From Planctomycetota bacterium (lineage in GTDB: Bacteria; Planctomycetota; UBA1135; UBA2386): 64,000 nt of DNA. Positions 46,657-52,498 of the stretch are shown here, one piece after another. Location: contig OZ245006.1 of the NCBI GenBank assembly GCA_965223545.1, forward strand, positions 5,088,001 to 5,152,000, read 5' to 3'. Both the position numbers and the translations under genes were made by a program. A model generated the notes under the pieces. It saw only the letters and a program-made list of their open reading frames with translations, was not told the origin of the DNA and did not search any database. Within the stretch, counting starts at the first letter, position 1; the number at the start of each line of letters is the position of its first letter.

Positions 46657-47568
46657 GTGACGATCGCCGTCTTCAGTCACGCGACCTGTGCCCGGCATCA
46701 GGCCGGCGTCGCGCATCCCGAGCGGCCGGAGCGGCTCGCAGCGGTGGCGCGCGGAGTGCGCGCCGCCGGGGTCGTGTTGGAGCACGTCGACGCGCCGGCC
46801 GCTGAGCGCGCGCAGGTGACGCGCGTGCACACGGCGGCGTTGGTGGACGCGATCGAGCAGCACGCGCCGGAGCAAGGCCTGGTGCAGATCGACGCCGACA
46901 CCGCGATGGGGGCCGCCTCGCTCGAGGCCGCCTACCGCGCCGCCGGCGCCTGCGTCGCCGCGGTCGACCGGGTCTTGTCCACCGCGCAGCGCGCCGCGTT
47001 CTGCGGTGTGCGGCCGCCCGGACACCACGCCGAGCGCGGCCGCGCGATGGGGTTCTGCTTGTTCAACAACGTCGCGATCGCGGCGCGCCACGCGTTGGAA
47101 TGCCACCAGCTGGAGCGAGTGGCGATCGTCGACTTCGACGTGCACCACGGCAATGGCACCGAAGACGCGGTCGCCGGCGACCCCCGAGTGCTGTTCTGCT
47201 CGTCCTTCCAAGAGGGCATCTACCCCGGCACCCCGCCGCCGCCCGCGGCCAACGTCGTGCACACGCCGCTGCCGGCGGGCACGGCGACGGCGGGCTTTCG
47301 CCGCGCGTTGGAGACGAGCTGGTGGCCGCGGCTCGAGCAGTTCGACCCCCAGCTGTTGTTGATCTCCGCCGGCTTCGATGCCCACGCGCGCGACCCGCTC
47401 GCCGGCCTCGCCCTGCAGGCGGAGGACTACGAGTGGGTGACGCGCCGGCTGCTGGAAGTCGTCGGTGACGCCACCGGTGGACGGGTGGTGTCGACGCTCG
47501 AGGGTGGCTACGACCTGCAGGCGCTCGAGGAGAGCGCGGCGGCGCACGTCGCCGGGCTCGCGGGGTAG
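46657..47568 (+). CDS. Histone deacetylase family protein
   Basis: HPERPERL, RPPGHHA, GFCLFNN, DFDVHHGNGT, SAGFDAH, LEGGY. Confidence 0.95.
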   Translation: MTIAVFSHATCARHQAGVAHPERPERLAAVARGVRAAGVVLEHVDAPAAERAQVTRVHTAALVDAIEQHAPEQGLVQIDADTAMGAASLEAAYRAAGACVAAVDRVLSTAQRAAFCGVRPPGHHAERGRAMGFCLFNNVAIAARHALECHQLERVAIVDFDVHHGNGTEDAVAGDPRVLFCSSFQEGIYPGTPPPPAANVVHTPLPAGTATAGFRRALETSWWPRLEQFDPQLLLISAGFDAHARDPLAGLALQAEDYEWVTRRLLEVVGDATGGRVVSTLEGGYDLQALEESAAAHVAGLAG

Positions 47569-47820
47569 GGCAGTGCGTCGAGAGTAGAACCAAGTGCCGG
47601 CCGGCGCGCCTTGGATAATCGTGGGAGACCTCCACGATGCGAGTTGCGGTTCGACCACGCCGACAGACGAGGGTACGCGGCTCATGAAGTTCGCGCGATC
47701 GCGCGCGCACGACCCGTTTCTTTACAGCGCCTGCACGAACTGCAAGGGAGGTGTTTGATATCTCCTAAGTCATGTCAAGGGGTTTTCGCTGGGGCTCGAC
47801 ATCGCGTGTGCACGGCTTGT

Positions 47821-49323
47821 TCAGGACTCTTCCACAAGACCAGGGAAGTGTTCTTGCATGAGATCACCGATCGGGTGAGGTTGACGTGGGGATTCCACGG
47901 CCAGGCCTGTGGCGTCCATTGGGCGGCCACTCAAGTCCCTCGTCGTCGGAGTCCCCACTCGTCCCTGTCGCCGTTGGTCGCGCTCATGCCGCTGTGGCGC
48001 GACGATGCTGCGCGTGAACTTGGCTGCGATGAGCGCGCGCGCGGCAACCTTCGTGAGCTCGTTGCCGTCGGCGTCTCGCAGGACGTAGCGGACTTGCGTC
48101 GACGCCGGCTTGTCATCGGCGCGCTGGCTGTCGCGACGCTTCAGGAGGGCGTAGACGCGGCGCGCCATCTTGCCAGCCAATGCGATGAGGATGAGGTTGT
48201 GGTGATCACCTGCGGCGTAGCGGCGAGCGTAGTACGCCGCGAAATCCGGATCCCACTGGCGAGCGACGTCAGCTGCTAGGTAGAGGTACTTCTTGAGTAC
48301 TCGTTGGCCGGTTTTGGTGATTGGCATCGAGGGGTCGCTCATGCCCGTCTGCTTCCGGCGTGGACACAGTCCGCAGTAGCTCACGAACTTCTTGCCGTTC
48401 GAGAACCGCGCGATGTCGCCTACCAAGGCTTCGATGGCCGCAGCGATCGTGGGACCGACGCCGCGCAGTTGCTCGAGTGTTCGGTCAGGATCGACGCCCA
48501 GGTAGAGCTTCTTGATCTTTGCGTCGAGCTTGCGAACGTCCGTGTTCTTGCGCTCGATCTCATCCAGCTCGTACACCACATCCTCTTGGATGGCCTCGTA
48601 GTCGAACGGCATCTGCCCCGCAGCTCGCAGCTCAGCGTAGTACTCGGCGGCCTGTCGGCAGGACTCGAGCACGCGGTCGACCAAGCACGGGTCATGCGTT
48701 CCCTTGGATCGCTTCGTCAAGAAGCGCTCCAAGCGACTCTTCCCAAGGCCGACCGCTTTCACCGGATCGACGTAGCGCCGCAGAAACCCCATCTTAGCGG
48801 CACTGAACTTCTCTGCCCCCAAGGCCTTCATGAGGCTGGGATTCGCCAGTACCAGTATCGCGTGCACACGACGCTTGTGGTCGCTGAGCTCGCGCGCCAA
48901 CCGCTCACGCCGCTTCACGAGTCGACGGATCGTCGTCTCGTCGGCAGTTGGAACACGCAGCTGGTGGACGCCCTTTGGATCCATCTGCGGCAGACGCGCA
49001 GCGGCCTCGGCGTCTACTACGTCGGTTTTGGTGTGCTTGCTATAGAACTTCCGCAGGTCGCTCAGCTTCTGTGGTTTGCTCACGTAGATCTGGAACCCTG
49101 CGGCGTTCACGTGCGCCGCGATGGGCAGCCACGCCAACCCCGTTGGTTCCATCACGAAGCTCACCGGACCCTCGGCACCTTCCTGTGCACGGCGCAGCAG
49201 AAGGTCAATACCCTCACGGCTGTTCTCGACTGAAAACGGTCTGCCCCGAGACTTCGCACCATCCAGAACGACGGCTCGGTGCTTGCTCCTCAAGCCGAGA
49301 TCCAATCCAACGAATCGATTCAT
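47821..49323 (-). CDS. IS110-family transposase/recombinase (DEDD RuvC-like plus Tnp20 domains)
   Basis: VGLDLG, MEPTG and KTDVVDA (DEDD); L..L.GVGP..A, RF...K.FVSYCGLCP, ITKTG..L...LYLAA; GGAGG RBS. Confidence 0.95.
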   Translation of the reverse strand: MNRFVGLDLGLRSKHRAVVLDGAKSRGRPFSVENSREGIDLLLRRAQEGAEGPVSFVMEPTGLAWLPIAAHVNAAGFQIYVSKPQKLSDLRKFYSKHTKTDVVDAEAAARLPQMDPKGVHQLRVPTADETTIRRLVKRRERLARELSDHKRRVHAILVLANPSLMKALGAEKFSAAKMGFLRRYVDPVKAVGLGKSRLERFLTKRSKGTHDPCLVDRVLESCRQAAEYYAELRAAGQMPFDYEAIQEDVVYELDEIERKNTDVRKLDAKIKKLYLGVDPDRTLEQLRGVGPTIAAAIEALVGDIARFSNGKKFVSYCGLCPRRKQTGMSDPSMPITKTGQRVLKKYLYLAADVARQWDPDFAAYYARRYAAGDHHNLILIALAGKMARRVYALLKRRDSQRADDKPASTQVRYVLRDADGNELTKVAARALIAAKFTRSIVAPQRHERDQRRQGRVGTPTTRDLSGRPMDATGLAVESPRQPHPIGDLMQEHFPGLVEES

Positions 49324-49399
49324 GTCCCCTCCATGTTCAACGAGTGAGTGTCGACGAGAGGACTCTCCCTACCCGCGCAGTCCGCCTGAGGAGGCGAGT

Positions 49400-49570
49400 C
49401 GCCAAAACGGTTCGTGTTTCGGGGCCGTGATTTCTCACGCCGCCAATCTCCTAAATCGGGTCCCCCACGCGGGAGGAGAGTCGCAGAACCAAATGAGGGG
49501 CCGCTCGAAGCGCCACCATTGCGGCAGATCGCGAAACCTCTCCGTCGCACGCCGGGGGACCCTAAGCTCT
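49400..49570 (-). ncRNA. Candidate IS110 bridge/seek RNA in the left non-coding end
   Basis: Nested stems GGGTCCCCC/GGGGGACCC, GGAGAG/CTCTCC and TCGC/GCGA enclose an internal loop (TGCCGCAAT / CTCATTTG) matching the target; downstream TTAGGAGAT is identical to the right end. Limits approximate. Confidence 0.65.
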
Positions 49571-49795
49571 CTTGCGGCCGATGACCAGACTCCCGACACG
49601 ACTCCTGCGGCTGCACCATCGCGCGAGTCTTCCACACCGCTACGGCGCGACGGGTGTGGAGAACTCTAGCTTCGCAGATCATGGAACCACACATACCGTT
49701 GCGGCGGTGGCGCCGAGAGTTCGGCGCCAGTTCCGGCGCCCAACGGGGATTTCGCGGATCGGTCCGGCACTTGGCGGCAAACCGATCTTTGACAG

Positions 49796-52498
49796 ATGAT
49801 GGAACCCGTGCGCGGCAATCCCCGGTTGATCGATCACACTTCCTTTCTGCGTCGCCTGGCCCGCACCCTGGTCGCCCAGGAGGAACTCGCCGAGGATCTG
49901 GTGCAGGAGACCATGCTGGCTGCAATCGAACGACCGCCGGCGGCTGGCTGGGAGTTGAGAGCGTGGTTGGCCGGGGTGCTGCGCAACCGCAACCGCCTGC
50001 AGATGCGCAGGGAGAGGCGACGCAGGGAACGCGAACAGGCCAGGGCCGCTGAGGGTTGGGAACCGTCCGCTAGCGCTCAGGCGGAGCAGCTCGATCTAGC
50101 GCGACACATCCTCGATGCGGTCCACGCCCTGCAGCCGGCGCAGCGCCAAGTCGTCCTGCTGCGGTACTTCGAGGGGCTGCCGCCACGGGAGATTTCGGCC
50201 AGGCTCCGACTACCCGTCAACACCGTTCGCAGCCGCCTCCGCCGAGCAATTCGCCAACTCCGTGCCAAACTCGACCGACAGTACGGGGCGCGTAGCGTAT
50301 GGGTGTGGGTGCTTGTGCCGCAGCTCACCCCACCGCCCACACCCGTTTGCGGCGAGCCTAAGCCGTTGGCGGTGGGGGGCGCCGGGGCGACACTCTGCTC
50401 GGGTGTGTTGTTATTGGCGGCCGCAGTCGGTGTCTCTTTGCTGCCGGGAGCATTCTCCCAGCGGCTCGGTGACAGCGACCAGGTCGTTCCTGTGACCTTC
50501 GCTAACTCACGGCAGGACCGAATGGGTCACGGTCCGGCAAATCGCGACGTGGCGGCCGGCCACGCGCCGGTCATGGGTCCGCCCAGGTTGCTCGTTAAGC
50601 CCGAGGCCGCACCGTTCTTGATCCGAGGTACGGTCCTCGATGCCGGCTCCCGAACGCTGGCAGGCGTGGACATTCGGGCGCGGATGTGGGTTGGATTCAA
50701 CTCCGAGGACGATCCAGAACGGGAGCACGTCCTTTGCAGCGATGCGAACGGTCGTTTCTGTTGGAGACTCGAACGGCCAACGGAAGCGGCTACCGTCGAG
50801 TTCTTTGTCGACGGACTGGGTTACGAATCTTGGCCATTGAGGTCGCGCATCTTTCGTGACCAAGTAGAAGCGCCGTACATCACCCTCAGGGTGGTCTTGC
50901 TCGACTGCGTGATCGTGGGGCGTGTCTTAGGCGCGGGCGGTCTGCCGGTCGCTGCGGCGCAGGTTGGGCGTTCACCGGATGCTCTGCAGGACTGCAATGG
51001 AGACGGTAGTTTCTCCATACCCGGGCCATCGAACCTGCCGCTGGTCTACGTCTTCGCCAAGGCACCAGGCTACGCCATCGCGCGCGTTGCGCTTCGTACG
51101 GGCGGAAGTGGATCTTGTAATCGGGCGCAGATTCAGCTGCGACCGCGCGTCGTGCTACAGGGCCGCGTGCGAGACGGCTCAGGCAATGGCATTGCCGGGG
51201 CGCGCGTGCGCACGTTCTACTCGCACAATCCCGATGCGACAACCGATGCAGATGGGCGCTACGAGCTCCTGCTCGACGCGAGACGTCGTTACGACAAGAT
51301 CTTCGCCAGCTATCCGGGGTACGCACGTTCCACCGCCCGAATAGCAATTGGATCGAAGGATTTGATGCTGAGAGATCTTGTTCTGGAGCCCGGAGTTGCT
51401 TTGCGCGGCCACGTATTCGACGAAATGGGACGCCCATTGTCCGGCGCGGAGGTCTATTTCGGTGCAGGGCCAAATGATTCCGCTCGGGTTCACGGATTAT
51501 CGCGGGATGATGGGAGTTTCGAGCTACTCGACCTACCCTCGCGGAGGCGTCTGCTTGTTACGAGCAAGACGGGTTATGCCCCGGATGTTCGCCAGCTGCT
51601 CCCGGCGGGATTGTCGGCGCGCGTCGTTCTTGCGCAAGGACAGTCGGTGCAAGGCACGGTAGTCGATCACGAGGGGCAACCGCTGCCAGGAATCCGACTC
51701 AACGCCTTGCAGCGAGTCGGGGAAGACTTGGTTAGTCTCGAGATGCATAGCGCGAGCGATGCCAGTGGCCGTTTCTACTTCGGGCAATTGCCGGTAGGAC
51801 CGCTCGTGCTTTCGAGCTACGCCGAAGGTTATCGGGGCAGCGAAATCGAGCTCGGCCATCCACGACCCGAAGAAATACGAGTCAAGATCTCGCGGGCAGG
51901 TTCGCTCGCCGGTCGCGTGCTCGACGCGCGCACTGGGACACCCGTGGAGTCGTTCTGTGTGCGTTTACTGGAAGCTTTGCCGGGTCCGGGCGAGAAGCCC
52001 GGTTCGGCTGCCGGCTCGACCTGGGCACGCGAAGGCTACACCTTTTCTGCAGGCGACGGATACTGGAGTACGGCCGGTACCAACCTCGAGTCCGCGGCGG
52101 CGTTCATAGTTCAAGCCAGTTCTCCGGGCTACGCGCCAGCGTTCGCCAAGGCAGTCAGTAGGCCCGAGCCTGAGCTTCTTGTTCTACACCTCCAACCGGA
52201 GGCCAGTATCAGAGGCATCGTAACCGTCGGCGAGGCAGCCCAACCGTTGGAGGGTGCCTTGGTGACATTATCTGGTGGTTCGGCTGCGCACCGCGAGATC
52301 CTCGCCGAGGATAGCTATCGTCGCGTGCTCGCGCGTACCGGGCCTGACGGACGGTTCCAGCTCAAAGCCGGAGCAGGCAGGTTGCTGCTCGAGGTGCAGC
52401 ACCCGACTTGCGCCACCCGTATCGACGGACCATTCGAAGTCGCCCCGGGAGGTACCGTGAATCGCGTCATCCACGTTCGGGCTGGTGTCCCCAATTAG
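49796..52498 (+). CDS. ECF sigma-70 factor fused via a TM helix to carboxypeptidase-regulatory-like repeats
   Basis: AEDLVQET..WLAGVLRN; LRYFEGL...EIS.RL..PVNTVRSRLRRA; hydrophobic LCSGVLLLAAAVGVSLL; several G.V.D..G.P..G repeats. Confidence 0.87.
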   Translation: MMEPVRGNPRLIDHTSFLRRLARTLVAQEELAEDLVQETMLAAIERPPAAGWELRAWLAGVLRNRNRLQMRRERRRREREQARAAEGWEPSASAQAEQLDLARHILDAVHALQPAQRQVVLLRYFEGLPPREISARLRLPVNTVRSRLRRAIRQLRAKLDRQYGARSVWVWVLVPQLTPPPTPVCGEPKPLAVGGAGATLCSGVLLLAAAVGVSLLPGAFSQRLGDSDQVVPVTFANSRQDRMGHGPANRDVAAGHAPVMGPPRLLVKPEAAPFLIRGTVLDAGSRTLAGVDIRARMWVGFNSEDDPEREHVLCSDANGRFCWRLERPTEAATVEFFVDGLGYESWPLRSRIFRDQVEAPYITLRVVLLDCVIVGRVLGAGGLPVAAAQVGRSPDALQDCNGDGSFSIPGPSNLPLVYVFAKAPGYAIARVALRTGGSGSCNRAQIQLRPRVVLQGRVRDGSGNGIAGARVRTFYSHNPDATTDADGRYELLLDARRRYDKIFASYPGYARSTARIAIGSKDLMLRDLVLEPGVALRGHVFDEMGRPLSGAEVYFGAGPNDSARVHGLSRDDGSFELLDLPSRRRLLVTSKTGYAPDVRQLLPAGLSARVVLAQGQSVQGTVVDHEGQPLPGIRLNALQRVGEDLVSLEMHSASDASGRFYFGQLPVGPLVLSSYAEGYRGSEIELGHPRPEEIRVKISRAGSLAGRVLDARTGTPVESFCVRLLEALPGPGEKPGSAAGSTWAREGYTFSAGDGYWSTAGTNLESAAAFIVQASSPGYAPAFAKAVSRPEPELLVLHLQPEASIRGIVTVGEAAQPLEGALVTLSGGSAAHREILAEDSYRRVLARTGPDGRFQLKAGAGRLLLEVQHPTCATRIDGPFEVAPGGTVNRVIHVRAGVPN

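Follow-up and report, generated by a model that had tools for sequence, protein, structure and literature searches.

A probable bridge RNA with a readable 12-nt target in a multi-copy IS110-family element of a Planctomycetota bacterium

Introduction

Bridge RNAs of IS110-family elements were described in 2024, so the mechanism considered here is not itself new, and that work reportedly predicted thousands of orthologues computationally. In IS621, the guides bind opposite strands, the left guide the bottom and the right guide the top, and both include the core (PMC11208160). Cleavage of the top strands falls immediately 3' of the core and leaves each core with its left arm on the top strand (PMC11208158). 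In the IS1111/IS110-type elements that use seekRNAs (PMC11187229), a non-coding region yields short guides to the target and to the element ends. ISPpu9 (PMC12288879) and ISPpu10 (10.64898/2026.03.19.712850) of Pseudomonas putida are multi-copy IS110 elements whose copies all lie in one repeated intergenic or repetitive extragenic palindromic (REP) sequence. For CazIS110-1 and IS621, biochemical work has led to top-strand and copy-out models (10.1101/2025.10.25.684509; 10.64898/2026.08.31.748434).

We analysed a window of 64,000 nt from a Planctomycetota bacterium (GTDB lineage Bacteria; Planctomycetota; UBA1135; UBA2386), corresponding to positions 5,088,001 to 5,152,000 of contig OZ245006.1 in assembly GCA_965223545.1, in which an initial annotation had described a bridge-RNA-like hairpin upstream of an IS110 gene. 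We put at close to nine in ten the probability that this hairpin is the target-binding loop of an IS110-family bridge RNA, belonging to an element with ends at 47758 and 49697 and with the target GCCGCA-AC-CAAA. The evidence consists of the element ends, a conserved fold, covariation between loop and flanks, the abundance of the target word and the homology of the protein to IS621 and ISCro4.

The locus shares with IS621 a recombinase with a DEDD RuvC-like and a Tnp domain and an RNA placed in the left non-coding end (PMC11208160, PMC11208158). It also shares the order of the RNA (5' stem-loop, target-binding loop, donor-binding loop), the sense of the guides (left guides in the same sense as the left arms, right guides complementary to the right arms), a target in a REP-like repeat and a putative -35 box in the right end. 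The protein is 500 aa long, compared with 326–328 aa in IS621, and the sequence similarity is distant (E = 2.2e-13). The best match among solved structures is ISCro4/IS622 (PDB 9t56; 10.1101/2025.05.14.653916), which covers both domains (E = 9.2e-17; 341 aa against 500) and was compared by protein only; ISCro4 and IS621 are the sole strong matches in the PDB. The seekRNA systems are likewise similar in drawing their guides from a non-coding region, and the Pseudomonas putida elements in their multiple copies within one repeated sequence, the latter a likeness of description between different hosts and sequences. The locus also offers a well-resolved natural case, with identical copies, many free targets, a readable target and many covarying relatives, and its protein, remotely similar to that of IS621, may be a distant orthologue of use for programmable recombination.

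Results and discussion

Element boundaries and target

A search of the source genome returned 11 matches to the element. When the window (47000–51000) was compared with the copies by BLAST, identity ran from 47751–47754 to 49705–49711, or to 49728 in one copy. Read in gene orientation, the left flank is ...GCCGCAAC followed by GGTATG... in 11/11 copies, and the right junction is ...GGAGATAT followed by CAAA..., again in 11/11. Because the left and right flanks of every copy join into a word that occurs free in the genome, the inserted DNA must be GGTAT...GATAT (47758..49697, minus strand, 1940 bp), with zero bases gained or lost; GGTATGTG opens its left end and ...ACTTAGGAGATAT closes its right end. 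The left half of the target, GCCGCAAC, which includes the target's AC, lies at 49698..49705 (minus) and is found at all eleven left junctions, so that GCCGCAAC+GGTAT occupies 49693–49705. The right half, CAAAC, lies at 47753..47757 (minus), and its CAAA, present after the right end in every copy, is complementary to the UUUG of the right target guide described below. Homologous elements keep GGTAT at the left end and CTTAGG.GA at the right end (within a conserved TTGAC-N3-CTTAGG.GA) although their flanks are unrelated.

The target GCCGCA-AC-CAAA corresponds to the 12-nt word GCCGCAACCAAA, whose free copies in the genome number 95, where composition predicts 0.8; GCCGCAACAAAC has a count of 0 and GCCGCAATCAAA of 1. 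The word is placed in the middle of the unit of a REP-like repeat, and this repeat hosts 9/11 copies, with one further copy having the right repeat half only. The window's own copy lies outside the repeat family, though it too sits at a GCCGCAACCAAA word.

These boundaries differ from those of the initial annotation, which had the element end at 49578, took the GCCGCAA at 49572–49578 as left flank plus core, and proposed a duplicated CAA (or CA) core with GGCCGCAAACACC as the reconstructed empty site. The motifs do lie where they were reported (GCCGCAA at 49519–49525 and 49572–49578, TTTG at 49490–49493, CAAA at 47754–47757), CAA stands beside both true junctions, and GCCGCAAACA and GCCGCAAACT occur free in the genome 27 and 12 times. 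Against this version, all 11 copies remain identical for a further 119–127 nt beyond 49578, with the end at 49697, and the conserved GGTAT marks the left ends of the homologs. No repeat joins the two junctions in homologs, and the window's CAA stems from the target's AAC-CAAA. The right guide, moreover, is not 4 nt long as had been thought but 7 nt (UUUGGUU, 49493->49487), the complement of AACCAAA, a string that GGCCGCAAACACC lacks and GCCGCAACCAAA contains, and both guides fit the latter. We consider this version barely credible. The match between loop and flank on which it was built is real, at the true junction, where the heptamer GCCGCAA falls at 49699–49705, and not at 49572–49578.

The internal GCCGCAA belongs to a linker, GGCCGCAAGAG (49569..49579, minus), within the block that is identical in the 11 copies. 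This linker holds GGCCGCAAG, a second left-target word in the same sense as the guide, and in one homolog (L042) the corresponding linker repeats 8 nt of that element's own right guide (ATTTGGTT). Such a copy of the target word may be a remnant of a duplicated guide.

The search for other copies and empty sites that the initial annotation had proposed thus produced the 11 copies and the 95 free target words but no orthologous empty site: 40 relatives searched with each flank gave only short coding matches of 66–100% identity. At E <= 1e-40, the protein was found in 1/339 genomes of the class, its own genome alone. The assembled contigs of sequencing runs X1, X5, X6 and X7 contained neither an empty site nor a circle junction. 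Contigs of runs X5–X7, which are labelled as other organisms, include pieces 100% identical to the element with flanks equal to those of own-genome copies, and many of their loose ends terminate at GATC. These pieces probably come from the same organism in mixed samples, and the GATC ends are probably a library effect.

A conserved RNA fold in the left non-coding end

The left non-coding end of the element is 374 nt long. As the initial annotation had described, the minus strand forms a long hairpin at 49562–49458, with outer arms GGGTCCCCC (49562->49554) and GGGGGACCC (49466->49458), and the minimum-energy fold also holds the inner helices GGAGAG/CTCTCC and TCGC/GCGA and a terminal CGC-loop-GCG. 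For a 121-nt stretch containing the hairpin, the folding energy had z = -2.83, with 3/200 shuffles equally good, and for a 277-nt region z = -1.14, with 24/200 shuffles equally good. The case for a fold beyond chance is made by covariation and not by folding energy.

Sequence conservation of the left non-coding end was detected in 23 related loci at E < 0.001. From 24 aligned sequences, RNAalifold predicted 33 pairs, 22 of them with compensatory changes; after dropping four pairs judged spurious, we retained a consensus structure of 29 pairs in 6 helices. Across the 24 homologous left ends, 93.7% of cells pair in this structure, compared with 80.0 +/- 0.9% in shuffles, and both sides have changed in 22/29 pairs, compared with 13.9 +/- 1.6, counts that overstate independence, since the 24 aligned elements include many that are closely related to each other. 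None of 500 shuffles matched the observed value on any of five measures, and sliding the 3' partner by 1–3 columns lowered pairing to 39–56%. In the alignment the stems are conserved and the loop segments variable.

A covariance model built from the 24-sequence alignment has a single match in the window, at 49398..49569 on the minus strand (model positions 1–174 of 174, 131.3 bits, E = 2.8e-39). Among loci outside the set used to build it, the model gave full-length matches directly upstream of a recombinase gene in 45, where protein identity falls as low as 27%, and at E <= 1e-4 it matched in 62/63 related sources. Its matches include a subfamily in which guides and right junction give a CT core, as in IS621.

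The RNA region as a whole spans ~290 nt and runs from a 5' stem-loop through the target-binding loop to the donor-binding loop. IS621's bridge RNA is reportedly shorter, at 177 nt. The RNA here is 5' of the gene, as in the IS110 group, whereas the IS1111 group has it on the 3' side. The 5' stem-loop, UCUCCACAC...GUGUGGAAGA (49628..49662, minus), reads CCACAG...CTGTGG in homologs and CCACAC...GTGTGG in the window, a compensating change. The hairpin of the initial annotation (49458..49562, minus) folds as the target-binding-loop hairpin and includes consensus helices 1–5, with compensatory changes. Helix 6 is the inner stem-loop of the donor-binding loop (49421..49444, minus), with 8 pairs, 5 of them changed on both sides, and 94.3% of cells paired.

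Guides and their match to the flanks

The left target guide, GCCGCAAU (49518..49525, minus; 49525->49518), lies on the 5' side of the internal loop and has the same sense as the left junction GCCGCAAC, to which it corresponds over 7 nt plus a U.G wobble, its final U standing opposite a bottom-strand G. On the 3' side, the right target guide UUUGGUU (49487..49493, minus; 49493->49487) is the exact complement of AACCAAA; at 7 nt it is longer than the 4 nt of IS621 (PMC11208160). Together the two target guides spell the 12-nt word found free 95 times. The senses that the initial annotation gave to the guides, the 5' side equal to the left target and the 3' side complementary to the right, are therefore supported, and so is its view of the internal loop as a target-binding loop, given the covarying fold and the following comparison.

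Among 21 elements, the longest run that a left guide shares with its own flank averaged 6.3 nt, compared with 3.2 nt for the flanks of other elements, and for right guides the averages were 4.5 and 2.9 nt. In 20,000 permutations of flanks against guides, none reached the observed sum on the left or on the right, and the same held with one representative per specificity (16 and 13 elements). This is the covariation of loop bases with flanks, across homologous left ends, for which the initial annotation had suggested building a covariance model. A right target predicted over 5 nt differed from the observed flank at no more than one position in 16/21 homologs. Examples of homolog guide and flank words are CCACAGAT, CCCCATAT, GACGAAAT, AAGACGAG and TTCGATCGC on the left, and TCCAG, CCCCC, GTGGG and CATG on the right.

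The same results bear on whether the hairpin could be a mere structured leader of the recombinase mRNA, acting in translational control or stability and matching the flanks by chance. The energy z-scores are modest, a separate small RNA is predicted here from sequence, and the GGAGG ribosome-binding site can be masked by a second hairpin that precedes the start codon. A leader of this kind does not account for loop bases, and not stems alone, that track each element's own flanks (0/20,000 permutations), nor for variable loops set against conserved stems, and the same layout is documented for IS621 (PMC11208160). We consider a mere leader very improbable and retain the bridge RNA. The second hairpin lies just 5' of the start codon (49324–49365, minus), where GUCCUCUC pairs with the ribosome-binding region GGAGGGGAC; homologs have a similar GGAGG...CCTCC, and the hairpin may control translation of the recombinase.

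The putative donor-binding guides lie on either side of the inner stem-loop. The left donor guide, UUAGGAGAU(U) (49445..49454, minus; UUAGGAGAU = 49453->49445), is identical at 9/9 positions to the right end TTAGGAGAT at 47760–47768, and its variable base covaries in some homologs (GGCGAT in L043 and L046, GGAAA in L053). The right donor guide, ACCGUU(UUG) (49403..49411, minus; ACCGUU = 49411->49406), is complementary to AACGGT at the left junction, with its conserved ACC opposite the conserved GGT of the left end; with the AT-GGT of a circle it would pair via a G.T wobble only. In 23/24 elements, the two bases that follow ACC in the right donor guide are the same as those that the right target guide uses to read the core, and such agreement is a requirement of a bridge RNA. 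Handshake guides like those of IS621 were looked for, and no convincing pairing was seen.

By analogy with IS621, the element would thus work as follows. The left non-coding end would encode an RNA with a 5' stem-loop, a long hairpin whose internal loop binds the target, and a second stem-loop flanked by donor-binding single strands, of which UUAGGAGAU would read the right end and ACCGUU the GGT of the left end plus the three bases preceding it. The recombinase, with its DEDD RuvC-like and Tnp domains, would use this RNA to join the circularised element to the target, the top strands being cut just 3' of a two-base core and then exchanged. The bridge RNA is presumably made, the strand-exchange chemistry is probably that of IS621, and changes in the loop would be expected to retarget the element, which would make it reprogrammable.

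Several observations weigh against this identification, besides the shared ancestry of the aligned elements noted above. Folding energy by itself is weak evidence in a genome of ~70% G+C (69.7%), and an Rfam search over 47000–50500 gave only two chance-level matches, to unrelated eukaryotic families (E = 0.69 and 0.76). That the RNA is transcribed is a prediction from the DNA. A look through sequencing runs listed no RNA run containing the stretch, a result that is silent on expression, and the circle junction that the mechanism implies is absent from the contigs searched. At the fifth right-target base, the guide predicts T and 11/11 sites have C or G. The left donor guide stops before the core, ending two bases before the junction with AT unread, although the IS621 core is described as part of all four pairings (PMC11208160). 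The flanking dinucleotides are unequal (AC and AT), which the published same-core model does not predict, and the position of the catalytic Ser241 of IS621 is occupied by T326 in the window protein.

Core dinucleotide and junction asymmetry

That the element belongs to the IS110 family and has a core other than CT, as the initial annotation held, is borne out by the Pfam domains, the structure matches and the guides. In the window genome, the left junction has AC and the right junction AT in 11/11 copies, with 0 swapped; the core is not duplicated, and the two flanks do not carry one and the same core. The guides here read AC and the element brings AT, while IS621 has CT on both sides (PMC11208160). 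Across elements the guide-read core is AC, AT or AG. On the left, the second base of the dinucleotide is the one given by the guides in 20/21 homologs. On the right, the dinucleotide is AT in 17/21 (18 under the other reading of a tie in L050) and equals the guide-read core in 5/21; the left and right dinucleotides differ in 16/19 homologs with both junctions known (15 with the L050 tie read the other way), several of these homologs being close relatives and not all independent. In L040, for example, the left junction reads ...AAAC|GGTAT and the right junction ...GATAT|TCCAGG, with no repeat.

An alternative is that the ends are placed correctly and the core is a duplicated AA or CAA, with GCCGCAAAC as a minority target, an element CGGTAT...GATATC and a right guide of UUUG only. 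CAA does occur at both junctions in 11/11 copies, the right guide of IS621 has four bases (PMC11208160), 39 free GCCGCAAAC[AT] sites are present, and the pairing of ACCGUU with AACGGT is perfect. This alternative makes a coincidence of the match of GUU with AAC in the guide and of the 95 AACCAAA sites. The bases before GGTAT and after the right end are not repeated in homologs, AT follows the right end in 17/21 whatever the target, and the spacing of the split promoter discussed below becomes 21 nt instead of 17 nt. We therefore regard a duplicated core as unlikely and keep the target GCCGCA-AC-CAAA, with zero bases duplicated.

Two further arrangements were tried and rejected. The first had the target GCCGCAACGGT-AT-CAAAC with an AT core, so that the two repeat units bearing GGTAT were the empty sites; it was ruled out, as GGTAT is conserved with unrelated targets, the donor ACC pairs with GGT, and the split-promoter spacing comes to 12 nt. 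The second gave the element an AC on the left too and was ruled out because the free sites contain AC and GCCGCAACAAAC has a count of 0.

Given that the donor core AT differs from the target core AC, a top-strand product has AC at its left junction and AT at its right one, as observed. Staggered exchange of both strands would give mismatched duplexes and, after replication, the reciprocal type as well, which was never seen. The retention of AC on the left and AT on the right would thus place the exchange effectively 3' of the core on the strand that determines the product. Excision and integration have been reported as mainly top-strand events (10.1101/2025.10.25.684509; 10.64898/2026.08.31.748434), in biochemical work on other elements, and what we have here is a genomic pattern only. 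The AC/AT pattern fits the top-strand models, and biased mismatch repair or both-strand cutting at one bond would also fit. One tentative explanation, to which we give somewhat less than even odds, is that in this clade the element brings an AT of its own, placed after the right end, and the guides read the target dinucleotide, and that the junctions record either top-strand-only transfer followed by copying or a both-strand exchange at a single bond 3' of the core. If this is true, it bears on the current debate over Holliday-junction versus top-strand copy-out/paste-in models, and natural differences between donor and target cores would allow genomes to show which strand's information survives. 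We did not find an argument from junction dinucleotides in genomes in the literature searched, which did not extend to supplements, and the word 'core' is absent from the consulted portion of 10.1101/2025.10.25.684509.

A probable promoter split between the two ends

Near the right end, TTGACA (47773..47778, minus; 47778->47773) resembles a -35 hexamer and lies 15 nt from the last base of the end; in most homologs, TTGAC stands 3 nt before CTTAGG. In the left end, two bases in, TATGTG (49690..49695, minus; 49695->49690) resembles a -10 hexamer, with TATATC, TATACG, TATAAG or TATGTT at that place in homologs. The two are spaced by 17 nt only if the ends are joined as a circle (...AT|GG...), and a TG lies just upstream of the -10. 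A promoter and terminator scan found no complete promoter-like site in the integrated copy. By analogy with IS621 (PMC11208160), the promoter is probably split, with the -35 in the right end and the -10 in the left end, and would be assembled only in the circle. The single terminator-like site in the scan lies on the opposite strand inside the gene and is not relevant here.

The recombinase

The gene (47821..49323, minus) encodes a protein of 500 aa with both IS110-family domains beyond the Pfam cut-offs (PF01548, E = 1.9e-24; PF02371, E = 4e-21). Residues D8, E59, D101 and D104 align with the DEDD residues D11, E60, D102 and D105 of IS621. Among 56 relatives, D8 is present in 54 (2 gaps), the position of E59 holds E or D in every one, and all 56 have D101 and D104. 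At E <= 1e-20 we found 102 relatives besides the protein itself, with 35–73% identity and mostly 480–560 aa long. An alignment of 56 relatives drove a scan of metagenome contigs, which gave 95 relatives, the best 80 loci being retained; a single-protein scan of genome contigs gave 8 further loci (best 42% identity), of which only L027 was used.

Residue numbers in the IS621 chain exceed the published ones by two (E62, D104 and D107 for E60, D102 and D105), so the published S241 is the Ser of ...YESG..., and the window residue aligned with it is the T326 of ...KQTG.... Of the 56 relatives, 37 have S here and 19 have T, so that none lacks a hydroxyl. The serine is described as conserved in the structure paper, and threonine goes unmentioned in the portion consulted (PMC11208158). 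The existence of eleven identical copies suggests that the Thr form is active, and Thr at the nucleophile position of an element active in the recent past would be a probe of what the active site tolerates. By hand computation from the gene coordinates, the T326 codon lies at 48346–48348 (minus).

The protein is ~170 aa longer than that of IS621, with a longer middle segment (48480–48835, ~aa 163–280) and a C-terminal tail (47821–48125, ~aa 400–500), both on the minus strand. The tail, of ~100 aa, has no Pfam match; relatives keep it, with R416, A428, R429 and R438 invariant.

The REP-like repeat

The repeat that supplies nearly all targets of the element reads ...CTCAGCGCGGCCGNGGCCGC AACCAAAC[A/T]CGGA[G/T]..., followed by a palindromic part, and occurs at ~100 or more places in the genome (for example, in the flanks of copies L002–L009), often as tandem units spaced by ~200 nt. 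Its commonest unoccupied form is ...GGCCGC AACCAAAC[A/T]CGGA.... A regular expression for the repeat gave 235 matches, with 77 having the two common spacers, 5 a shorter AAAC[A/T] and 1 the GGTAT form.

Two repeat units, both in the same genome and outside the window (C1 plus-strand offset 611329 and C1 reverse-strand offset 7528243), read GCCGCAAC-GGTAT-CAAA, that is, a free target together with the first five bases of the element's left end. They look like scars of an aberrant excision that took place between two AT dinucleotides, one within GGTAT and one following the right end, and that would have happened twice independently.

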